Below, piece by piece: positions 10-11,508 of a stretch of DNA of 11,508 nucleotides. Within the stretch, counting starts at the first letter, position 1; each line of letters begins with the position of its first letter. Source of the stretch: a virus; the UHGV virus genome UHGV-0111509; one strand, given 5' to 3'. The notes beneath the pieces were generated by a model that was given only the letters and a program-made list of their open reading frames with translations, had not been told where the DNA came from and did no database searches. A program made the translations under genes and the position numbers.

Positions 10-29
10 TTGTGTACATTTGTACACAA
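10..29. promoter_or_regulatory. Perfect 9-bp inverted repeat TTGTGTACA-tt-TGTACACAA immediately upstream of the TetR-family gene; candidate operator for autoregulation
   Basis: Read directly: positions 10-18 and 21-29 are exact reverse complements separated by 2 nt. The location just 5' of the regulator start is typical of TetR-family operators (inference). Confidence 0.4.
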
Positions 30-49
30 TTGCAGAGAGAGGAAATGAC

Positions 50-586
50 ATGCGTCGCGCTAACGATCCGCAACGGCGAGAAAAAATTATCCAGGCCACG
101 CTGGAGGCGGTGAAACTTTACGGAATACATGCTGTTACGCACCGCAAAATTGCTACCCTTGCCGGGGTACCGTTGGGATCGATGACCTACTATTTTTCAG
201 GAATTGATGAGTTGTTACTGGAGGCGTTCAGCAGTTTTACTGAGATCATGTCCCGGCAATATCAGGCATTTTTTAGCGATGTTAGTGATGCTCCGGGCGC
301 ATGCCAGGCTATCACCGATATGATCTACAGCTCACAGGTTGCAACGCCGGATAACATGGAGCTGATGTACCAGCTCTACGCGCTGGCTAGCCGAAAACCG
401 CTATTAAAAACGGTAATGCAAAACTGGATGCAGCGCAGTCAGCAAACGCTCGAACAATGGTTTGAACCCGGAACCGCCCGCGCGCTTGATGCGTTTATTG
501 AGGGGATGACGCTGCATTTTGTCATCGACCGTAAGCCGCTATCGCGCGAGGAGATTTTGAGGATGGTTGAGAGGGTTGCAGGGTAG
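50..586 (+). CDS. TetR/AcrR-family transcriptional regulator, probably a host gene flanking the prophage
   Basis: The ORF track gives 20..586, but codon 20-22 is TTG. The first ATG is at 50, preceded by a GAGAGAGGA RBS-like stretch. The N-terminal region ([48 protein letters not shown]) has the spacing and residues of a TetR HTH signature. GC looks higher than the AT-rich islands. Confidence 0.8.
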
Positions 587-736: not shown

Positions 737-1006
737 TTACCTTAGACGCCAGGGGCCTCTATCTTCAATCTGTTCGACTAACCCCTCCTCTTCTAGTTCA
801 CGCAATAGTGCAACAACCCAATATTGTTGGTTCGAACTTGTTGCTTTCCGTTTTTCTCCCCAATCGAGGCCGCTTAGACGAAATACCTCAGCTTGCTTAA
901 CGCCGTTGCCGTTTTTTTGGGCATCTGGGTGAGTTTTAAGTACGGATAAAGCCAATTCTTTGGCTCTGTTGCGCAATTCCGCTCCCTGATGCTGAAACTT
1001 ATTCAT
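737..1006 (-). CDS. Hypothetical small protein (89 aa) encoded just downstream of int on the same strand; possible winged-helix-like DNA-binding protein
   Basis: ATG at 1006-1004 preceded by GGAG at 8-nt spacing (complement of 1015-1018). It lies 58 bp downstream of the int stop, so is likely co-transcribed. The C-terminal segment (QQYWVVALLRELEEEGLVEQIEDRGPWRLR) resembles a winged-helix recognition helix plus wing, but I do not recognise the family. Confidence 0.55.
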   Translation of the reverse strand: MNKFQHQGAELRNRAKELALSVLKTHPDAQKNGNGVKQAEVFRLSGLDWGEKRKATSSNQQYWVVALLRELEEEGLVEQIEDRGPWRLR

Positions 1007-1064: not shown

Positions 1065-2096
1065 TCAAAAAATTGCTATTGATGTTGGTAGTGTTGCCAG
1101 CGGATTAAACCGTAATGCAGTTTCCAGGTGATCCGGTGCCAGATGTGCGTAACGCATAGTCATTTTTATATCGTGATGCCCGAGAATTTTTTGTAAGGCC
1201 AGGATATTTCCACCCGACATCATGAAGTGCGCCGCAAACGTATGGCGCAGAACGTGTGTCAGTTGACCGCGAGGGAGCACGATAGACGTTTTTTCCATCA
1301 CGGATAAAAATTGAAAATAGCAGTCTGTAAAGAAATTGAACCCATCAAGCGCCATGATCTCTTCGTAAAGCTCTTTACTGATAGGGATGCTTCTGTTTTT
1401 CTTCCCCTTCGTTCTTACAAAGGTAATTCGGTATTTGGTCACCTGTGAGCGGGTAAGATTTACGGCTTCACGCCAACGTGCGCCTGTGCTTAAGCATATC
1501 TTAACTACCAGTGCCAGAATTGGGTCCTGACGTTTGCAATCAGCCAGCAATTCAACAATCTGCTCATGGGTAAGCCATGCCATCTCTTTTTCTGCGATGG
1601 TGAATTTTCGCATGTTCTCCAGTGGGTTCGGATACGACCATTCGCCCAGGCGGGATAGTTCGCTAAAAACACTACTTAGATAGCTTTGCTCCAGGTTAAT
1701 GGTGACCGGGCTTGCTCCTTTCTTCCATTTCTCGCTGAAGTAGATCTCACCTGTCAGGCGTTTATCTCGATAGTGGGCAAACATTTTAGAGGTTAGATCA
1801 GTTGCAAGGGGATTGCCCAGAGCGTCAACCATCAGCAGCAATTTGTCATAGACATGCTGCCCAGCAGTCAGTGATTTACCATGTAGTTTGAACCATAGCT
1901 CAACCACGTCTTTCAGTGTTCGACGATCCACTGATTCACCTAGCCAGGGCTTTGCTTCGGTTTCTTCCATCGTGTGACGCTCAAAAGCCAGTGCTTCACC
2001 TTTGGTGGCGAATTGTTTACGCACACGACGTCCACTACGTCCGGCGGGGTAACATTCGCAAAGCCATTTTCCTGTGGTGAGTTTTCGTACTGCCAT
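1065..2096 (-). CDS. int: Site-specific tyrosine recombinase, P2/186-family phage integrase
   Basis: The translation from the ATG at 2096-2094 begins MAVRKLTTGKW, which matches how P2-family integrases start (P2 Int begins MAIKKL...). Box I TGARWREA is present, as are the HxxR pair and catalytic Tyr in HVLRHTFAAHFMMSGGNILALQKILGHHDIKMTMRYAHL. GGAGGG RBS 8 nt upstream. The 26-codon N-terminal extension in the ORF track (to 2174) is rejected. Confidence 0.9.
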   Translation of the reverse strand: MAVRKLTTGKWLCECYPAGRSGRRVRKQFATKGEALAFERHTMEETEAKPWLGESVDRRTLKDVVELWFKLHGKSLTAGQHVYDKLLLMVDALGNPLATDLTSKMFAHYRDKRLTGEIYFSEKWKKGASPVTINLEQSYLSSVFSELSRLGEWSYPNPLENMRKFTIAEKEMAWLTHEQIVELLADCKRQDPILALVVKICLSTGARWREAVNLTRSQVTKYRITFVRTKGKKNRSIPISKELYEEIMALDGFNFFTDCYFQFLSVMEKTSIVLPRGQLTHVLRHTFAAHFMMSGGNILALQKILGHHDIKMTMRYAHLAPDHLETALRFNPLATLPTSIAIF

Positions 2097-2126: not shown

Positions 2127-2186
2127 ACTGTATATATAACCAGTGTCAATGTATATTAATTGAGATTCATACATTGAGGTTAATTT

Positions 2187-2792
2187 TTATCTTTCTACTT
2201 CCCAGCGTAGAGATTGCATTAACATAGCATAAATATTGAACAGGAAAGTTTTTAAAGTTAATACAAGGAATACTGCACTGCTTCCTACGAGTATATATAG
2301 AATTTGAACTCCAACAACTTTTGTGCAATGAGAAAACATTAAGGCTCTGAGTAATTTTGTAGCCAATCCATTTTCTTGCCCGAAAAGAAGGATTAAAAGA
2401 TAGATAACAGACCAAAATATGAAATATATAAATACTCTCATAAATACGCCATAAACATATTTTAAGTAACTTATCCCATATAATGGATGCTTATACTCCA
2501 TTAATGAAAGGAAAAGTTCAGGTTTATTTATGGTTGCAAATATTGTGAATCCAGTAATTAAAAAACCTAATGTTGTTGTAGTGAACCCGAATACTAAAGG
2601 TGTCCATTGTCTAATAGATGAAATTAACTCTGGTGATGAAGATAGACAAAAAGCATTAATAGATAACAATATCACTAACAATAATGTGAAATAAAAGTCA
2701 AATGAATTGACTTTTATTTTTTTAGTTAATTTGTAAACATCATACAAAGATCGCTCTTTGGTCAGATCTTCTGGGTTGAATGTATATTTCAT
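2187..2792 (-). CDS. Integral membrane protein, about four predicted transmembrane helices (201 aa); third gene of the repressor-linked operon; candidate RexB-like membrane effector
   Basis: Four long hydrophobic stretches (FYFTLLLVILLSINAFCL; WTPLVFGFTTTTLGFLITGFTIFATI; VYGVFMRVFIYFIFWSVIYLLILLFG; VVGVQILYILVGSSAVFLVLTL). The start ATG (2792-2790) is 1 nt from the TAG stop of the upstream gene (2796-2794). Strongly AT-rich. Confidence 0.75.
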   Translation of the reverse strand: MKYTFNPEDLTKERSLYDVYKLTKKIKVNSFDFYFTLLLVILLSINAFCLSSSPELISSIRQWTPLVFGFTTTTLGFLITGFTIFATINKPELFLSLMEYKHPLYGISYLKYVYGVFMRVFIYFIFWSVIYLLILLFGQENGLATKLLRALMFSHCTKVVGVQILYILVGSSAVFLVLTLKTFLFNIYAMLMQSLRWEVER

Positions 2793-2793
2793 A

Positions 2794-3843
2794 CTATAGC
2801 CACCTAGAAATTATTGATGTTAACTTGGAAAAAATTTTAGCATAATCTTCACGTTCTGGAATAATAATATTTCCTTCATCCTTTAATTCTGTGAATGCAG
2901 AATACGCCTCTTGAGCAGCTCTTTCCAAATCAGAACTAAGTTGTGGCCTTGATGCTTTTAGAGTAAAACTATCATTATTCCCTGATAGCCTTGCTCCGTG
3001 TTCATCTTTACCACTTATAATTACTTTAGAGTTGGCCATTTGGGTTGCACTTGTTGTTTTTTGAATGACGGCCTCAGAATTTAGACCATCTTCATTTTTA
3101 TTTGTGTATACTAATTGAGCTTTACTACTATTAAGTTCTTCTTTTTCTTGTTCAATTTTTCTCCAGAAGCCATCAAGAGATATATTTTCACTATTTGTTG
3201 GCAATAACTCAATTGATAATCTATTCACAACAGAAAAGAGTTCAACAAAATTGCTCAATGATCTTGGGTCTGTTAAGGGGGTAACCCGTAATTTTGGGGC
3301 TCCTAGTTTACGATAAATATCTTTTTTATATAGTCGATCAATGTATGATTTTTTCTTTCTAATTCTTTTATTTTTTTTTACTTCGTAATCCACAAAAGAA
3401 TTATATCGCTTTGCAAGGCAATACTTGCTAGTATTTTCAAATTCTTCTAGGGTAGGGGCTCCAGAAACCTCTTTACAAAGCATTAATCTGTGCTCATTAA
3501 GCATAAGGATAAAAATAGAGCTGGGGTGACTTTCTAGCGTCCTGTGATCTCGAATTAATTGACCATCTTGAAATATTTGATCTCGTTTAAATATGGTCTT
3601 TTTAATAATACGCCCACACAATGCAATTGTTGGAACTATAGGACCAATAAAATCTGAATCTGTAGTATCTAACGTAATTATTTTTGTGTCAGTAAAGAAA
3701 TATTCTGTATCTTTAAATTTTCTAACGTATTTTTGTGCGAAAAATGAAGGAAAAACAATGCAGTCAAAGGCATCTAAGAGAACTTTGTCCTCTCCAAAAT
3801 TTAAGGTATAGTTTGCAAATTCAATAGTTTTCGTAAAGCTCAT
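2794..3843 (-). CDS. Hypothetical cytoplasmic protein (349 aa) with no motif I recognise; middle gene of the repressor-linked operon; candidate sensor/effector partner of the membrane protein
   Basis: Long uninterrupted ORF in an AT-rich region. Its ATG (3843-3841) lies 2 nt after the TAA stop of the repressor gene (3848-3846), indicating translational coupling. It has a lysine-rich basic patch (KKNKRIRKKKSYIDRLYKK). No Walker A or nuclease signature was seen. Confidence 0.7.
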   Translation of the reverse strand: MSFTKTIEFANYTLNFGEDKVLLDAFDCIVFPSFFAQKYVRKFKDTEYFFTDTKIITLDTTDSDFIGPIVPTIALCGRIIKKTIFKRDQIFQDGQLIRDHRTLESHPSSIFILMLNEHRLMLCKEVSGAPTLEEFENTSKYCLAKRYNSFVDYEVKKNKRIRKKKSYIDRLYKKDIYRKLGAPKLRVTPLTDPRSLSNFVELFSVVNRLSIELLPTNSENISLDGFWRKIEQEKEELNSSKAQLVYTNKNEDGLNSEAVIQKTTSATQMANSKVIISGKDEHGARLSGNNDSFTLKASRPQLSSDLERAAQEAYSAFTELKDEGNIIIPEREDYAKIFSKLTSIISRWL

Positions 3844-3845
3844 TG

Positions 3846-4787
3846 TTAAACCCTTTTTCTAATTATTCCTTTAACTTTATTATTAAATTCCAAATCTTCT
3901 TTGTCGCATTCAAAGCTATATTTTGTGTTTTCAACGCGGATGCGATTGTTTGGAAGTTTAAATATATCTCTAAAAGTAAATTCTCCGTTAATAGATACTA
4001 ACCATAGACCATCGCTAAGATACTCCTCTTTGCTAATGATGTATGAATCATTTGCGGAATTAACTATATAGGGATGTTTTAAATTTTGAGGTAAAATTTC
4101 GCTCGAAACGATTAATTCTCTTTGATCAGTAAGTTTGCCGTCACGTAGATCATAGCAGTCTAATGTAAGCAACCCACTTAGCTTTGTTTGATTGGAACGC
4201 CCCTTACCAAAAGATAACCACTCGAGAGACACTCCTGTTTCTAAACAGCATTGGATGATCCAGTCTGCAGGAAAAATGTCTCGCATGTATCGTGTAGCTA
4301 ACGTGCTTTTTGAGATACCAAGGTGATCGGCTAAGGCTTGGCGCGTTTTGTAACCGTAAGCCTCAACAATTCGCTCTATTGCTGCTTTACCCCCTCGAGT
4401 GAAATCCATGTGGTTTTCATTATCGAACTTTATAGTGGGGGTGTGAACTTCATTGCAAAATTCATCTCCAGACTGTTTTTCAGCATGCCATTCTGGCGAA
4501 GGAGATGGCATTCCTTCTTCGGCATCTAAACCAAATGCTAGCCATTCGATTGATGCACCAGTTTCCATTGAACATATAACAACCCAATCAGCAGGGAAGG
4601 TATCGCGTGCATATCTGTTAGCCATTGTACTTTGTGAAATACCAAGGTGGTTACAGAATGCTTGGCGTGATTTGAAACCATAGGCCATGAGTATTCTCTC
4701 AATGACTTTTTGCCCTCCTCGATTCTGCATGACCATGGCTTTCAGATGATCTTCAATATGGCGAAATGTGATTTTATTAGTTGACAT
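3846..4787 (-). CDS. CI-type phage immunity repressor candidate with a tandemly duplicated 186-CI-like HTH domain plus a C-terminal domain (313 aa)
   Basis: Two about 64-aa segments (residues about 23-86 and 130-193) are roughly 60% identical to each other: RGGQKVIERILMAYGFKSRQAFCNHLGISQSTMANRYARDTFPADWVVICSMETGASIEWLAFG versus RGGKAAIERIVEAYGYKTRQALADHLGISKSTLATRYMRDIFPADWIIQCCLETGVSLEWLSFG. Both resemble the phage-186-type CI repressor HTH domain (from memory). The gene is divergent from the apl/cox-like gene, which is the canonical repressor position. Confidence 0.8.
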   Translation of the reverse strand: MSTNKITFRHIEDHLKAMVMQNRGGQKVIERILMAYGFKSRQAFCNHLGISQSTMANRYARDTFPADWVVICSMETGASIEWLAFGLDAEEGMPSPSPEWHAEKQSGDEFCNEVHTPTIKFDNENHMDFTRGGKAAIERIVEAYGYKTRQALADHLGISKSTLATRYMRDIFPADWIIQCCLETGVSLEWLSFGKGRSNQTKLSGLLTLDCYDLRDGKLTDQRELIVSSEILPQNLKHPYIVNSANDSYIISKEEYLSDGLWLVSINGEFTFRDIFKLPNNRIRVENTKYSFECDKEDLEFNNKVKGIIRKRV

Positions 4788-4875
4788 ATTCTTTATGCGA
4801 ACCTATTCTCCGTTTTGTGAAGTTTTCGTCACGATTAATACCGGCTCACCACAAGCCAATAGGAGATGTTGCATC
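4788..4875. promoter_or_regulatory. Divergent switch region between the repressor operon and the apl/cox-cII operon; expected to hold face-to-face lysogenic and lytic promoters and operators
   Basis: An 88-bp intergenic spacer between divergent starts 4787 (-) and 4876 (+). Contains a TTGTGA -35-like hexamer (4815-4820) and a GTTTTG/GTTTTC direct repeat. Exact promoter hexamers could not be assigned confidently. Confidence 0.4.
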
Positions 4876-5097
4876 ATGACCCCTAACATTTCAATAACTC
4901 TGAATACGCCGCACGTCACAATTGAGCGTTATAGCGAACTTACTGGTCTTTCTATCGACACAATCAACGATATGCTGGCTGATGGTCGCATCCCTCGTCA
5001 TCGCCTTCGGAAAGACAAGAAAAGAGAAAAGGTAATGATCAACCTTGCTGCTCTTACCGTTGATGCACTTACTGATTGCAATGTTGTATTCAACTAG
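4876..5097 (+). CDS. Apl/Cox-like excisionase and transcriptional regulator (small HTH protein, 73 aa)
   Basis: ATG at 4876 preceded by AGGAG (4861-4865). HTH-like segment [27 protein letters not shown]. First gene divergent from the repressor, which is the apl (186) / cox (P2) position. The upstream in-frame extension to 4768 is rejected. Confidence 0.7.
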
Positions 5098-5129
5098 TTC
5101 CATTTTGGGATACATCAGGAGTGTCGACT

Positions 5130-5639
5130 ATGTTTGATTACCAAGTTTCCAAACATCCACATTTTGATGAAGCCTGTCGTACATTCGCGCTGCGCCACAA
5201 CCTGGTGCAACTGGCAGAACGTGCTGGCATGAATGTGCAGATTCTGCGTAACAAGCTGAACCCAGCTCAACCTCATTTATTAACCGCACCAGAAATCTGG
5301 CTGCTTACCGATCTGACTGAAGATTCAACGCTGGTAGATGGTTTTCTGGCTCAGATTCACTGCCTGCCATGCGTACCGATTAATGAGGTGGCAAAAGAGA
5401 AACTGCCACATTACGTCATGAGTGCAACCGCAGAGATCGGGCGTGTTGCTGCAGGTGCGGTATCTGGCGATGTAAAAACCAGTGCAGGTCGTCGTGATGC
5501 TATCAGCAGCATTAACTCTGTAACACGACTGATGGCGCTGGCGGCTGTTTCATTGCAGGCCCGTTTACAGGCTAATCCTGCGATGGCGAGTGCAGTTGAT
5601 ACCGTGACTGGCCTCGGTGCTTCATTCGGTTTGCTGTGA
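5130..5639 (+). CDS. cII: Phage 186 CII-like lysogeny-establishment transcriptional activator (169 aa)
   Basis: ATG at 5130 with AGGAG RBS at 5117-5121. The 169-aa length and the position immediately after apl match phage 186 CII as I remember it. HTH-like region [19 protein letters not shown]. Needs BLASTP confirmation. Confidence 0.75.
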
Positions 5640-6453: not shown

Positions 6454-6680
6454 TGGCTGATGCAATGGATCTCGTACAGCAGCGCGTTGAAGAAGAACGC
6501 CAGCGCCACATCCGTGCTGCCCGTGCCAAAACGCCGGGCGTGTCCCGCGTGCTTTGCATTGAGTGTGAAGCGCCAATTCCGCCAGCACGCCGCCGCGCCA
6601 TTCCGGGAGTGCAGCTTTGCATTACCTGTCAGGAAATCGCAGAGCTGAAAGGTAAACATTACAACGGAGGTGTTGTATGA
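6453..6680 (+). CDS. TraR/DksA-family C4 zinc-finger protein (75 aa)
   Basis: Two Cys pairs, CIECEAPIP...CITCQ, with spacing typical of the TraR/DksA zinc finger. P2-family phages carry such a gene upstream of A (established knowledge). Confidence 0.75.
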   Translation: MADAMDLVQQRVEEERQRHIRAARAKTPGVSRVLCIECEAPIPPARRRAIPGVQLCITCQEIAELKGKHYNGGVV

Positions 6681-7534
6681 GCACCATCCTGAAATGGGCG
6701 GGAAATAAAACCGCCATTATGCCAGAACTGAAAAAACACCTTCCTGCTGGCCCGCGACTGGTTGAACCTTTCGCGGGTTCCTGTGCAGTGATGATGGAGA
6801 CGGATTACCCCAGCTATCTGGTTGCGGATATTAATCCTGATTTAATCAACCTCTATAAAAAGGTTGCCGCTGATTGTGAATTGTTTATATCTCGCGCCAG
6901 GGTTTTATTTGAGGAAGCAAACAGGGATGTGGCTTATTACAACATAAGGCAGGAGTTTAACTACTCAACTGAAATTACTGATTTCATGAAAGCGGTATAT
7001 TTCCTGTATCTCAATCGTCATGGTTACCGTGGGTTATGTCGCTATAACAAGAGCGGGCATTTCAACATTCCCTACGGTAATTATAAAAATCCGTATTTCC
7101 CTGAAAAAGAAATTCGTGCATTTGCAGTAAAAGCCCTGCGGGCAACGTTTATCTGCGCCAGCTTTGATGAAACGCTGGCGATGTTGAAGGCGGGGGATGT
7201 GGTGTATTGCGATCCGCCGTATGACGGCACGTTTTCCGGTTATCACACTGACGGCTTCACTGAAGATGACCAGTATCACCTGGCATCCGTTCTTGAACAT
7301 CGATCATCTGAAGGTCATCCGGTCATTGTTTCTAACAGTGACACATCCCTGATTCGTTCGCTGTATCGCAATTTCACTCACCACTACATCAAGGCAAAAC
7401 GCAGCATCGGTGTGTCGGCTGGCGAGAGTAAATCTGCAACAGAAATCATTGCTGTTTCCGGGGCGCGCTGCTGGGTGGGATTTGATCCTTCGCGTGGCGT
7501 GGATAGTTCTGCTGTGTACGAGGTGCGTGTATGA
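6677..7534 (+). CDS. dam: Dam-family (D12 class) N6-adenine DNA methyltransferase, orphan phage methyltransferase (285 aa)
   Basis: N-terminal LKWAGNK and [11 protein letters not shown] (AdoMet-binding motif I), catalytic DPPY (VYCDPPYDG), and the conserved [16 protein letters not shown] block closely parallel E. coli Dam. The start overlaps the TraR-like stop (ATGA), and its stop overlaps the A start. Confidence 0.9.
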
Positions 7535-9945
7535 CTCATGACGATATGAGCAACTCTAGCGGCTTTAACGAGGTCGCTGTAGCATTTTCATGGAACGGCC
7601 CGAAAAAGGCCATTAACCCTTATCTGGAACCGGCGGAAGTTGCGCCGGAGTCTGCACTTTCAAACATGATCACTCTGTACGCTGCCGATAACGAGCAGGA
7701 ACAGCAGCGCCGCGAGGCACTGAGTGATCAGGTCTGGGAACGTTATTTCTTTAATGAATCCCGTGATCCTGTCCAGCGCGAAATGGAGCAGGATAAGCTC
7801 ATTAGCCGGGCAAAACTGGCGCATGAACAGCAGCGTTTTAACCCGGACATGGTCATTCTGGCAGATGTCAGCGCCCAGCCTTCTCATATCAGCAAGCCGC
7901 TGATGCAACGTATCGAATACTTCAGCAGCCTGGGCAGGCCAAAGGCTTATTCCCGCTATTTGCGTGAGACGATTAAGCCATGTCTGGAGCGACTGGATTG
8001 TGTACGTGACAGTCAGCTATCTGTTTCTTTCCGTTTTATGGCAAGCCATCAAGGGCTGGAGGGTCTGCTGATCCTGCCTGAAATGAGCCAGGATCAGGTG
8101 AAACGCCTGTCCACCCTGGTAGCAGCGCATATGAGCATGTGTCTTGAGGCCGCTTGTGGTGATTTGTACGCCACCGATGACGTTAAGCCAGAAGAAATCC
8201 GCAAGACATGGCAAAAGGTGGCTGCGGAAACCCTGCGTCTGGATGTTATCCCGCCTGCGTTTGAGAAACTTCGTCGGAAAAGAAACCGCCGCAAACCCGT
8301 GCCCTATGAACTCATACCGGGTTCGCTGGCGCGTATGTTGTGCGCCGACTGGTGGTATCGAAAATTATGGAGGATGCGTTGCGAATGGCGGGAAGAGCAG
8401 TTGCGTGCTGTCTGTCTGGTCAGCAAAAAAGCATCTCCCTATGTCAGCTATGAAGCCGTGACGCATAAACGTGAGCAGCGCCGCAAGTCGCTGGAGTTTT
8501 TCCGTTCTCATGAACTGGTGAACGAAGACGGAGACACGCTGGATATGGAAGATGTGGTAAACGCCAGCAGCAGCAACCCGGCACATCGCCGCAATGAGAT
8601 GATGGCCTGCGTTAAAGGTCTGGAGCTTATCGCGGAAATGCGTGGTGACTGCGCCGTTTTCTACACTATCACCTGTCCGTCACGTTTCCATTCCACGCTC
8701 AACAACGGCAGACCCAACCCGACCTGGACAAACGCGACGGTAAGACAAAGCAGCGATTATCTGGTCGGCATGTTTGCTGCATTTCGTAAGGCAATGCATA
8801 AAACCGGGCTGCGCTGGTATGGCGTGCGGGTGGCTGAGCCGCACCATGACGGTACTGTGCACTGGCATCTTATGTGCTTCATGCGTAAAAAAGACCGCCG
8901 CGCCATCACTGCATTACTGCGTAAGTTTGCCATCCGTGAAGACCGCGAGGAGCTGGGTAATAACACTGGTCCGCGCTTTAAGTCTGAGCTGATTAACCCG
9001 CGCAAAGGAACGCCGACAAGCTACATCGCGAAATATATCAGTAAAAATATTGACGGACGTGGTCTGGCTGGCGAGATCAGCAAGGAAACGGGTAAATCCC
9101 TGCGTGATAACGCCGAATACGTTAATGCCTGGGCGTCTCTGCATCGTGTTCAGCAGTTCCGCTTCTTTGGTATTCCGGGACGTCAGGCTTACCGTGAACT
9201 TCGCTTGCTGGCTGGTCAGGCGGCAAGGCAACAGGGTGACAAAAAAGCAGGTGCGCCGGTACTGGATGACCCGCGTCTTGATGCCATCCTGGCTGCTGCT
9301 GATGCTGGTTGTTTTGCCACCTACATCATGAAGCAGGGCGGCGTACTGGTTCCCCGCAAATATCACCTTATCAGAACCGCTTATGAAATTAACGAAGAGC
9401 CGACCGCCTATGGCGATCACGGTATTCGTATTTATGGCATCTGGTCACCCATTTCAGAGGGCAAGATCTGCACTCATGCAGTGAAGTGGAAAATGGTTCG
9501 TAAGGCCGTTGACGTTCAGGAGGCGGTAGCCGACCAGGGCGCTTGCGCCCCTTGGACTCGTGGCAATAACTGTCCCCTTGCTGAAAATTTGAACCAACAT
9601 GAGAAAGATGAATCAGCAGATGGGGATACCAGAACGGACATTACCTGCATGGATGACAAGGAATTGCACGATTACCTGCACAGTATGAGCAAAAAAGAGC
9701 GCCGGGAACTGGCAGCAAGATTGCGCCTGGTTAAACCGAAACGGCGTAAAGACTACAAACAGCGAATTACAGAGTATCAGCGTCAGCAGCTCGTCTATGA
9801 ACTGAAGTCCAGAGGATTTGATGGCAGCGAGAAAGAGGTCGATTTGCTCCTTTGCGGTGGCAGTATTCCGTCAGGAGCAGGCCTGCGTATCTTCTATCGG
9901 AACCAGCGTTTGCAGGAAGATGATAAGTGGCGGAACCTGTATTAA
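7531..9945 (+). CDS. A: P2/186 gpA-type rolling-circle replication initiation endonuclease (804 aa)
   Basis: HUH motif ([10 protein letters not shown]) and paired active-site tyrosines ([10 protein letters not shown]) are characteristic of the gpA/phiX174 gpA family. Its size and its position after the early genes match P2 gene A. Confidence 0.9.
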
Positions 9946-10037
9946 TCACGCGGGTTAACAATTCGTGCTCTTAATAATACCAGGCATATCAGGCTGATGA
10001 ACGTAAAAAAACGTTTTACATCAGTACGATTATTATA

Positions 10038-10057
10038 TACTGTAAATATAAACAGTG
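10038..10057. promoter_or_regulatory. LexA operator (SOS box) taCTGTaaatataaACAGtg in a promoter-like AT-rich region upstream of the 62-aa ORF
   Basis: Read directly: CTGT (10040-10043), 8 A/T-only nucleotides, ACAG (10052-10055). This matches the LexA consensus CTGT-N8-ACAG with an AT-rich spacer. Possible -35 TTTACA (10015-10020) and -10 TATACT (10036-10041) overlap it. Confidence 0.7.
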
Positions 10058-10098
10058 GTTATATGTACAGTATTGCGTATGGTGTTATAGGAGGAAAG

Positions 10099-10287
10099 AT
10101 GCAGGACTATTTTTTGGAGTCTTTGAAGCTCCAGCGCATTGATTTTTTTCTTAAGCTTGTAGCGGCTAGTGAGTGTAGTGATGAAGAGAAGGGGCTAGCT
10201 CTGCAGTGGGTTTCTGAATTGACTGATGAGTTGATGGCGAAAATTCGAAGCCATGAATACAGTAGGTCGATGGATGTAATCAGTTGA
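10099..10287 (+). CDS. Hypothetical 62-aa protein under putative LexA control; candidate Tum-like SOS-inducible antirepressor
   Basis: ATG at 10099 with TAGGAGGA RBS at 10088-10095. The LexA box is about 45 bp upstream and a terminator follows. The longer ORF-track start (9997) would run through the promoter and LexA box and is rejected. The functional call is by analogy to 186 tum. Confidence 0.5.
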   Translation: MQDYFLESLKLQRIDFFLKLVAASECSDEEKGLALQWVSELTDELMAKIRSHEYSRSMDVIS

Positions 10288-10320
10288 GCTTGTTTCGTTA
10301 GGACTTGATAAGGGAACCGA

Positions 10321-10341
10321 AAAGGGGCATTAAGCCCCTTT
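10321..10341. terminator. Bidirectional intrinsic terminator between convergent genes (stem AAAGGGGC / GCCCCTTT, loop ATTAA)
   Basis: GC-rich 8-bp stem read directly. Followed by TTTCTC on the plus strand and by TTTTCGG on the minus strand. It lies between the plus-strand gene ending at 10287 and the minus-strand gene ending at 10355. Confidence 0.55.
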
Positions 10342-10354
10342 CTCATAAGTTGAT

Positions 10355-10654
10355 TTAGTTGTTACCCAAAGAGCCGGCCATGGCTGCATATTTAATTTCT
10401 TCGCTGGGTATTTCAGGATGTAGTTGAATTTGCCTGATGATATAGCCAGGAACTTCTTCACTCCACAGTTTCGCCGCGTCCTTACAGACCTTATACGCGA
10501 AGTCTCTATTCTCAAAGGCATAGGATTTTCCGTATGCATATTGCTGACAGGCATGAACATAAGCTCCGAAGTCGCCGTCTTTATCTGGCAAAGCACATCC
10601 AGCTAAGGCTATGATGATTGCTACTAACGTAAAGGAGAAAGTTATACGTTTCAT
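10355..10654 (-). CDS. Small lipoprotein (99 aa): signal peptide with lipobox LAGC
   Basis: N-terminus MKRITFSFTLVAIIIALAGCALP has a basic n-region, a hydrophobic core and a L-A-G-C lipobox. The mature part is rich in Tyr and Cys. Located in the AT-rich cargo region downstream of gene A. Confidence 0.75.
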   Translation of the reverse strand: MKRITFSFTLVAIIIALAGCALPDKDGDFGAYVHACQQYAYGKSYAFENRDFAYKVCKDAAKLWSEEVPGYIIRQIQLHPEIPSEEIKYAAMAGSLGNN

Positions 10655-10709
10655 GGTCTCTTTCTAAGCGTTTAGCATTATTTAACTAAGGGGTATCTGC
10701 CGTGATTTG

Positions 10710-10738
10710 GTAGTCCCTGATATATATTCTCAGGGACT
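10710..10738. promoter_or_regulatory. Perfect 10-bp inverted repeat TAGTCCCTGA-(9 nt AT-rich)-TCAGGGACTA between two same-strand cargo genes; candidate operator or RNA hairpin
   Basis: Read directly: 10710-10719 and 10729-10738 are exact reverse complements with spacer TATATATTC. No T-run follows on the minus strand, so it is not a classical terminator. Confidence 0.4.
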
Positions 10739-10762
10739 ATGCTGAAGTAGCTTTAATTTTGA

Positions 10763-11508
10763 TTATTTAGAAAGGTACTTATCTCTAAGTTGATTCAGTC
10801 TGTCAGCATCGCGTTCTGAAAACTCGGCGTCACCATAGATCGATTTCCCATCTGCGTCTTCAAGGCCAATGACTGTGACGGTAAATATAGCATCAGCCGG
10901 AACTTTAAGTTTTCCCCAATCAGAGTATCTATTAGGGGCTAATTTCCAGTTGGCTTTCTCACCTGGTTCCAGACCTCCAGAAATTTTATAGTTGAAGACG
11001 TCAGAGAACCAAGGGACGCTTCTTCCTGGGCTGGCAATAACTCCTTTGAAGAATACTCTGGCAACCGCTTTGTCTGTTCCGTTTTCAACGCTAATATCCA
11101 GAATTGGCTGATCATTGCCGTAATCCTCTTTCTGGAAATAAAAACGGGAACGTTCGACCTTGAAGGCTTTCATTTTTTCCGCAGCCTGTGTTGCAGAGGT
11201 TTGTTTGGCTTCCAGTTCTTTTATTTCTTGCAGAGCCTGTTCTTTCTCTCTCTTCTCACGCTCAAGGCGAATAGTTTGTGCGTAATTTATAACCTCATCA
11301 CCAGTTTTACCTTCCAACGCTGACTTAATTTTTGTTTCGTAGACGTCCCCAGAAGACGTTCCAGCCTGCATTAGCTCTCTCATGTTGATTTGGCTAAAGG
11401 CAACGACTTTAACTGCATCATCAAACTGAGCTTTTTTATCTGCAGGTAAGGACTCTCGGTGATGCTGCCAACTTACTGATTTAGTGTATGATGGTGTTTT
11501 TGAGGTGC
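10763..11508 (-). CDS. Hypothetical protein, 5' end outside the window (at least 248 codons); contains a predicted coiled-coil segment
   Basis: The ORF track starts it at the Met at 11383, but the same frame stays open without a stop to the window edge (checked codon by codon, 11384-11506), so the gene probably starts beyond 11508. Charged heptad-like segment EREKREKEQALQEIKELEAKQ. AT-rich. Confidence 0.6.
   Translation of the reverse strand, partial: TSKTPSYTKSVSWQHHRESLPADKKAQFDDAVKVVAFSQINMRELMQAGTSSGDVYETKIKSALEGKTGDEVINYAQTIRLEREKREKEQALQEIKELEAKQTSATQAAEKMKAFKVERSRFYFQKEDYGNDQPILDISVENGTDKAVARVFFKGVIASPGRSVPWFSDVFNYKISGGLEPGEKANWKLAPNRYSDWGKLKVPADAIFTVTVIGLEDADGKSIYGDAEFSERDADRLNQLRDKYLSK

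Follow-up and report, generated by a model that had tools for sequence, protein, structure and literature searches.

In the stretch of DNA analysed here, 11,508 nucleotides (nt) of UHGV virus genome UHGV-0111509 (hereafter the window), the immunity repressor gene cI is followed on the minus strand by two genes whose products have 349 and 201 amino acids (aa). By analogy with characterized Rex modules, we consider it likely that these two genes constitute a two-component system of the RexAB type, acting by abortive infection or exclusion and carried as swappable cargo of a hotspot between cI and the integrase gene int. Support for this reading comes from the RexA fold predicted for the 349-aa protein, the conserved four-helix partner encoded beside it, the defence contexts in which the pair is found, and the variability of the slot that it occupies. 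The window holds the left end of a Peduoviridae prophage, P2/186-like, that is integrated beside the host gene rcdA. A first-pass annotation of this DNA had proposed a RexAB-like module by analogy of gene arrangement; the fold, the pairing of the two genes, their contexts and the hotspot support that proposal and raise it from analogy to predicted homology of fold.

The three minus-strand genes are tightly packed. The stop codon of cI (TAA, 3848-3846) is followed by a 2-nt spacer and the ATG of the 349-aa gene at 3843, and the stop codon of the 349-aa gene (TAG, 2796-2794) by a 1-nt spacer and the ATG of the 201-aa gene at 2792, so that the spacing of 1-2 nt described earlier is confirmed by both the open reading frame (ORF) listing and the sequence. 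RefSeq annotates the same three genes and the downstream pair recurs in all 16 loci examined (16 of 16); chance does not account for this ORF pattern. In phage 186 (NC_001317), cI (22433-23011) abuts int (21423-22433) with nothing between them in the annotated pL lysogenic operon; the slot thus holds cI alone in 186, as had been stated, which makes the two additional genes of the window an insertion in this operon. Base composition sets the insertion apart from its neighbours. The G+C content is 0.295 for the 201-aa gene, 0.326 for the 349-aa gene and 0.391 for cI, versus 0.459 for int, 0.506 for cII and 0.525 for the replication gene A (gpA), and the low-GC block runs into the 3' third of cI (0.322 over 3846-4199 versus 0.432 in the 5' part). 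The earlier impression that the region is AT-rich relative to its flanks is borne out by these values (0.30-0.33 versus 0.43-0.53), with the addition that the block enters cI. No terminator-like site was found on the minus strand between 1900 and 5200, and a promoter scan, in which the number of sites was at chance level, placed a promoter-like site at 4781-4809 on the plus strand; these scans neither back nor exclude an internal promoter like lambda P_LIT. Co-transcription with the repressor is a feature of both lambda cI-rexA-rexB and CarolAnn 45-44-43 (PMC6426606). Because of the precedents of 186, lambda and CarolAnn, the spacing of 1-2 nt and the lack of a terminator-like site on the coding strand, we infer that cI, the cassette and int would be co-transcribed in the lysogen, with int as the downstream end of the proposed operon.

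The relationship of the 349-aa protein to RexA lies in its predicted structure. The model of the monomer has the two-domain RexA fold, a split globular beta-sheet domain with an inserted dimerization domain that is RdgC-like, and RexA clearly outscored other folds in both fold searches made with this protein. As modelled, the 349-aa protein is a fold-level relative of RexA that stands outside the RexA sequence family. It has no Pfam match at E ≤ 10 and none in NCBIfam or PADLOC, and its PHROGs match is an unknown-function family alone. The RefSeq copy WP_040038354.1 is named 'DUF4747 family protein', and DUF4747 is a weak HHpred motif common to lambda RexA, Sbash gp30, CarolAnn gp44 and Butters gp30. 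A precomputed match to this family (PF15931) exists for 5 of the 25 closest homologues, while the current Pfam model misses the 349-aa protein at E ≤ 10 and matched 1 of 50 family members (E 0.0085), and we regard the relation, judged by sequence, as borderline. Across these 50 members, which are 27-46% identical to the 349-aa protein, the residues N11, G77, F111, H118, E125, P130, N217 and G278 are invariant, and a conserved block extends from H118 and R119 through E125 to A129 and P130. We know of no catalytic activity of RexA, and Pfam-level scans that included the 50 members detected no enzymatic domain in the 349-aa protein. The eight invariant residues could mark an interface or an unrecognized activity.

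The 201-aa protein shows four hydropathy peaks (33-51, 66-84, 120-138 and 159-177), and its AlphaFold 2 model (predicted local distance difference test score 80.7) contains long helices at 30-50, 53-88, 109-137 and 155-200, in agreement with the four transmembrane (TM) segments assigned to it previously. The same hydropathy method gives lambda RexB an equal count of four segments. About 30 residues at the N-terminus form a lysine/arginine-rich segment that is predicted to be cytoplasmic, and alignment of the family revealed the motifs E-K-S-L-W-D-V-Y at the N-terminus, LGFLIxGFTIFAT in TM2 and LRWE at the C-terminus. No family match came from Pfam (E ≤ 10), NCBIfam or PADLOC, and PHROGs returned unknown-function families only. 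PADLOC and Foldseek were both checks that the first-pass annotation had suggested; the former found neither downstream protein, and the latter gave nothing at E ≤ 0.001 for the 201-aa model against the BFVD viral models. The RexB-like role that we assign provisionally to the 201-aa protein draws on its architecture and its linkage.

Several points weigh against a Rex-type assignment. The RexA/RdgC-like fold is found also among non-defence proteins, and four-helix bundles are generic. The Pfam RexA and PADLOC RexA/RexB models detect the lambda proteins (PADLOC RexA versus lambda RexA, 9e-110, as a positive control) and not the cassette proteins; 0 of 50 family members match Pfam RexA (PF15969), and an hmmsearch of PDB sequences with profiles of the 349-aa family gave no match. 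Alignment of the 50-sequence family profile with a 22-sequence RexA profile by hhalign yielded a probability of 3%, and against lambda RexA alone the link was not significant. The 3% match is collinear and C-terminal (residues 244-322 of the 349-aa protein to 188-264 of RexA) and was not used as evidence. A relation of the 201-aa protein to RexB was likewise undetectable by hhalign (0.1% probability). Promoter-like sites were not above chance in this AT-rich DNA (14 versus 11.7 ± 2.7 expected), and the direction of signalling within the pair is not secure, since the roles are reversed in the Butters system.

A profile search of 1.84 billion representative proteins recovered the 349-aa family in 704 clusters at E ≤ 1e-3 and 350 at E ≤ 1e-30 (50%-identity clusters), nearly all of 325-350 aa. 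The family ranges from Gamma- and Betaproteobacteria to a Verrucomicrobiota member, and those of its members that carry names include one Verrucomicrobiota genome and many Vibrio species, the best profile match among them. The surrounding DNA was examined for 16 loci, namely the window and 15 others from Enterobacter, Silvania, Photobacterium, Vibrio, Pseudidiomarina, Colwelliaceae, Denitromonas, a Rhodocyclales metagenome-assembled genome, Halioglobus, Marinomonas, Salinivibrio and several metagenomes. This revealed that in every one (16 of 16) the RexA-fold gene is followed directly by a gene for a membrane-protein homologue, at intergenic gaps of -14 to +8 nt, mostly -4 to +5, and the hidden Markov model of the membrane protein matched with E values of 5e-65 to 2e-105 in the ten genome loci. 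Pairwise identities of the two proteins correlate across the 16 loci (r = 0.93), a value reached by 0 of 5,000 permutations in a Mantel test. The two genes are one conserved, co-diverging module.

The order cI, RexA-fold gene, membrane-protein gene, int is found in a P2-like slot in the window, in Enterobacter cloacae (locus L004) and in Silvania confinis (L010), the cassettes of the latter two being 43% and 78% identical to that of the window, respectively. In four unrelated genomes or contigs (L007, L011, L014 and L025) the pair adjoins a type I restriction-modification (R-M) operon, and in two of these (L007 and L014) it begins within about 45-85 nt downstream of hsdR, which hints at a recurrent pairing of type I R-M with abortive infection. 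Other defence-like neighbours are RE_endonuc together with a HATPase_c_3 protein (L016), SNF2+NOV_C (L019) and a WYL regulator (L012). The pair is also carried by a Zot-encoding element (L013), by an integrative mobilizable element with integrase and relaxase (L026), and, in a Salinivibrio chromid, by a stretch rich in insertion sequence (IS) elements with attC-like repeats (L030); plasmid copies are rare, with two records. Most of the pair loci are without any CI-like gene. An anti-phage system would be expected to show such a distribution, which does not depend on any CI repressor.

Pfam matches to cI (PF07022 in two stretches, E 3.4e-57; PF16452, E 1.3e-19) resolve it into two Phage_CI_repr helix-turn-helix (HTH) domains, at about aa 21-97 and 135-197, followed by one Phage_CI_C domain, as anticipated by its earlier description as a dual-HTH CI-like repressor; it belongs to PHROG 4, transcriptional repressor, and is named 'phage repressor protein CI' in RefSeq. 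The HTH domains are tandem repeats of 64% identity (aa 23-86 versus 131-194; window 4197-4727). A single HTH is present in CI of phage 186 (192 aa) and of the Silvania (216 aa) and Enterobacter (203 aa) prophages with related cassettes, and two sister E. coli prophages (L021 and L022) have CI versions of 314-316 aa. The 5' part of cI and its flank match about 500 complete E. coli genomes.

In E. coli prophages at the same rcdA site, the CI N-termini are 84-86% identical to that of the window, and the slot between cI and int is filled by a GmrSD_N protein and a RiboL-PSP HEPN protein in the prophage of strain 504239 (L021) and by a single 325-aa gene in the sister prophage L022. The cI-int slot is a defence-cargo hotspot. 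Comparison by blastn placed the breakpoints at 2154/2155 and 4200/4201, homology with the sister prophages stopping at 2154 and restarting at 4201. The second joint is within cI, at the junction of HTH2 and the CI C-terminal domain, and agrees with the drop in G+C inside the gene; each type of cargo thus arrives with a CI oligomerization domain of its own. Horizontal acquisition, previously suggested from base composition, is supported by the replacement of the AT-rich block 2155-4200 with other cargo in the sister prophages, and the exchange joint inside cI shows how one defence cargo can replace another while the lysogenic operon stays intact. DUF262/GmrSD_N and HEPN pairs occur in two hotspots, between cI and int in L021 (2365-4135) and between gpA and the portal gene in E. 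coli EC20-72C-1 (L029, 17722-19705), which suggests that cargo moves between the cI-int and gpA-portal hotspots.

The pair could instead be a mobile module unrelated to defence, such as an addiction or toxin-antitoxin-like stabilizer or a membrane-stress module, whose fold is a generic DNA-binding scaffold shared with RdgC. We consider this quite unlikely in view of the clear lead of RexA over other folds in both searches, the repeated adjacency to R-M and the GmrSD and HEPN genes that occupy the same slot in sister prophages.

The C-terminal domain of CI from the window shares 59% identity with its counterpart in the Silvania prophage, whose cassette is 78% identical, versus 28-34% with those of L021 and L022, which carry other cargo at the same rcdA site. 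In the Enterobacter prophage, where the cassette is 43% identical, this domain is 36% identical and no closer than in the prophages with other cargo; its co-inheritance with the cassette is therefore read as physical linkage rather than as an interaction between CI and the cassette. A functional covariation of the CI C-terminal domain with the cargo was considered and downgraded, as it is shown by the closely related Silvania cassette alone and plain linkage fits. The same data speak to a role of the pair mainly in the lysis-lysogeny switch of the prophage itself, with defence secondary. Lambda RexA binds CI and DNA, biases the switch and stabilizes the lytic state (10.1101/2021.04.19.439022; PMC11077077), and in the window 2 nt separate cI from the 349-aa gene and the cassette has been inherited together with the C-terminal domain of CI. 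However, this inheritance is explained by linkage (36% in Enterobacter against 28-34% with unrelated cargo), and most loci have no CI-like gene and hold the pair instead near R-M genes, IS elements or a relaxase-bearing element. As most family members lack a CI neighbour, switch modulation like that by lambda RexA, which may play a part in the prophage copies, cannot be the core function, and we judge this explanation very unlikely.

A mechanism for a Rex-type system can be outlined by analogy with lambda, CarolAnn, Sbash, RexABpp and Sucellos, from which sensing, activation, membrane effect and phage resistance are all inferred. The lysogen would transcribe cI, the RexA-fold gene, the membrane-protein gene and int from the lysogenic promoter, as the 186 layout and the spacing of 1-2 nt imply. 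The RexA-fold protein, which by analogy with RexA is probably dimeric and able to clamp DNA, would sense a product of the superinfecting phage (one of its proteins or a DNA-protein intermediate) and would then activate its four-helix membrane partner. The activated partner would permeabilize or depolarize the inner membrane, upon which adenosine triphosphate would drop, growth would halt and the infection would abort.

In an opposite wiring, modelled on Butters, the RexA-fold protein would itself act against the phage or be toxic, as the effector, and its membrane partner would sequester or restrain it until infection sets it free. In Butters gp30/gp31, the effector is the cytosolic member, and defence does not require the membrane protein (PMC7542560; summarized in PMC12894663), and the invariant polar residues N11, H118, E125 and N217 of the 349-aa family, which have no known RexA counterpart, could point to an activity residing in the protein itself. 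On the other hand, the membrane protein or both genes are needed in lambda, CarolAnn, Sbash, RexABpp and Sucellos, and no enzymatic domain was detected in the 349-aa protein, which leaves this wiring unlikely; the pairing in 16 of 16 loci and the co-divergence of r = 0.93 are compatible with either. Superinfection exclusion of the Sie/Sim type, in which DNA entry or early steps are blocked at the membrane with no killing or arrest, would account for a small polytopic membrane protein of a prophage, and such genes often adjoin repressors. Entry blockers are, however, usually single membrane proteins, whereas here a RexA-fold partner is obligatorily linked, and the characterized relatives act after DNA entry; exclusion of this type is accordingly very improbable. 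We therefore retain the RexAB-type reading, with the RexA-fold protein as the putative sensor and the four-helix protein as the putative effector.

The segment 2100-4900 matches E. coli EC20-72C-1 at 100% identity and ten further E. coli chromosomes at about 98%; among 5,426 complete E. coli genomes, only 11 have all of it. Klebsiella phage 4LV2017, together with a dozen near-identical records of Klebsiella phages, matches it at about 98% as well, so that the RexAB-like cassette is present in a sequenced Klebsiella phage. Features of the window are collected in Table 1.

Table 1. Features of the 11,508-nt window, from left to right
Feature	Position	Strand	Remarks
rcdA	20-586	+	Host gene at left of window
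89-aa ORF	737-1006	-	Left of int
Tyrosine integrase gene int	1065-2096	-	Pfam Int_N + Phage_integrase; RefSeq coding sequence mapped from L029 7966-8997
Swapped low-GC cargo block	2155-4200		Both cargo genes and the part of cI for the C-terminal domain; blastn versus sister prophages
Four-helix inner-membrane protein, 201 aa	2187-2792	-	Proposed RexB-like effector
RexA-fold (predicted) cytoplasmic protein, 349 aa	2794-3843	-	Proposed infection sensor/activator
cI immunity repressor, 313 aa	3846-4787	-	First gene of lysogenic operon
Lysis-lysogeny switch and first rightward genes	4788-5639	+	Would set the lysogenic promoter position, by analogy with 186 and its annotated pR, pL and pE
apl-like gene	4876-5097	+	RefSeq features mapped from L029
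cII	5130-5639	+	Pfam Phage_CP76, E 7.8e-42; RefSeq mapped from L029
dam	6677-7534		Right of switch genes
Replication gene A	7531-9945		Overlaps dam end
99-aa ORF	10355-10654	-	N-terminus MKRITFSFTLVAIIIALAGC resembles lipoprotein signal; no Pfam/PADLOC match
206-aa ORF	10763-11383	-	No Pfam/PADLOC match

The mechanical ORF of int in the ORF listing reaches further than the RefSeq gene, to 2174. A 350-bp segment (735-1084) that holds the 89-aa ORF sits between the prophage end and int, in the position of Orf69 in phage 186; it is present in EC20-72C-1 and absent from phage 4LV2017, L001, L002, L010, L021 and L022. Pfam gives at most weak winged-helix-like hints for the 89-aa ORF, and the interval between att and int is a reported minor P2 hotspot. 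To the right of cII lie fil, DUF5347, DUF2732, a TraR/DksA-like gene and dam, followed by gene A. E. coli CAVP766 (L001), which shares the cassette, has a gene with a PAPS-reductase domain (9422-10432) between dam and gene A, and the window has no such gene there. To the right of gene A (about 10290-11508), the window and EC20-72C-1 diverge completely; EC20-72C-1 has a DinI-like gene and the DUF262 and HEPN genes there, and then the portal gene. The 99-aa and 206-aa ORFs of the window lie in this classical P2-like gpA-portal defence hotspot and may be further uncharacterized cargo.

A Rex-type cassette behind a prophage repressor is an already known kind of arrangement, and a cI-int defence hotspot in P2 relatives is also published; a January 2026 paper counts five described Rex-type abortive-infection systems. 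The family of the 349-aa and 201-aa proteins is missed by the PADLOC 2.0, Pfam and NCBIfam models tested. If the cassette defends, a large proteobacterial branch would join the Rex-type systems and could enter defence-annotation tools, and the window would offer an E. coli/Klebsiella example, in a tractable P2/186-like phage, for questions of how RexA-type proteins sense infection and how their membrane partners open. A specialist would not be surprised by the Rex-type cassette as such; what deserves attention is the size of the family, its invisibility to the tools, the tractable coliphage background and the unusual joint inside the repressor gene.

Like lambda rexA, the 349-aa gene lies between the gene for the immunity repressor and that for a small membrane protein, probably on a joint transcript. 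The cassette differs from lambda RexA/RexB (RexA, PDB 8TWQ) in having no detectable sequence similarity to them (Pfam PF15969/PF15968, PADLOC and hhalign all negative), in the length of its proteins (349 versus 279 aa for RexA and 201 versus 144 aa for RexB), in its carrier, a P2/186-like rather than a lambdoid phage, and in the conserved cytoplasmic N-terminal segment of about 30 aa of the 201-aa protein, which RexB lacks. The first-pass annotation had recognized no described defence family in the two proteins; this stands as far as sequence models go, both proteins being missed by them, and falls short in that RexAB-like systems defined by structure alone have already been published. One of these is Sucellos (SclA/SclB), from the Vibrio cholerae chromosomal integron, which is structurally RexAB-like, is missed by Pfam and is now in DefenseFinder; it consists of two genes, both needed, occurs in integrons of Vibrio as well as in prophages and satellites of enterobacteria, and is reported to be common in Salmonella (10.1101/2024.07.02.601686). 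By this description, the cassette resembles Sucellos in its two adjacent genes, in its RexAB-like predicted structure, in being missed by the RexA and RexB Pfam models, and in its Vibrio members and the copy among attC-like repeats in the Salinivibrio chromid, and differs from it in that the 25 closest homologues include no Salmonella member. On this comparison with its published description, the cassette family may already have been named as Sucellos.

The RexABpp system of Pseudomonas putida prophage P1 (PP_5643/PP_5644; PMC12894663) is linked to lambda by an HHpred match of 98% between PP_5643 and RexA, versus the 3% given by hhalign here. Its primer-derived termini (RexApp MHRTATFV...; RexBpp MLIGQLAKPL...LYYLGYKLQE), the termini alone being compared, are without the motifs of the cassette family, and a primer-derived 26-mer of PP_5643 had no match in viral and metagenome collections. 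The cassette family seems, on this weak evidence, not to be RexABpp. CarolAnn gp44/gp43 and Sbash gp30/gp31 (PMC6426606, PMC6426596) combine, like the cassette, a cytoplasmic protein (370 aa) with a four-helix membrane protein; the CarolAnn pair is co-transcribed with the repressor, and the name 'DUF4747/CarolAnn' is echoed by the NCBI label on some copies of the 349-aa protein, while hhalign found no relation of the cassette proteins to CarolAnn gp44 or gp43. We suggest tentatively, and with somewhat more doubt than conviction, that the cassette represents a distinct, unnamed RexAB-type clade that is neither Sucellos nor RexABpp nor of the actinophage type, that has its own trigger specificity, and in which a link between the RexA-fold protein and CI is possible as in lambda. 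Between their conserved core genes, P2-like phages have hotspots whose anti-phage cargo varies; one between cI and int has been described in Vibrio K139-like P2 relatives, and the int-primase interval holds 8% of P2 defence systems (PMC9122126, PMC13586616). Relative to these published hotspots, the exchange boundary in the window is inside cI, so that the C-terminal domain of the repressor is swapped together with the cargo.

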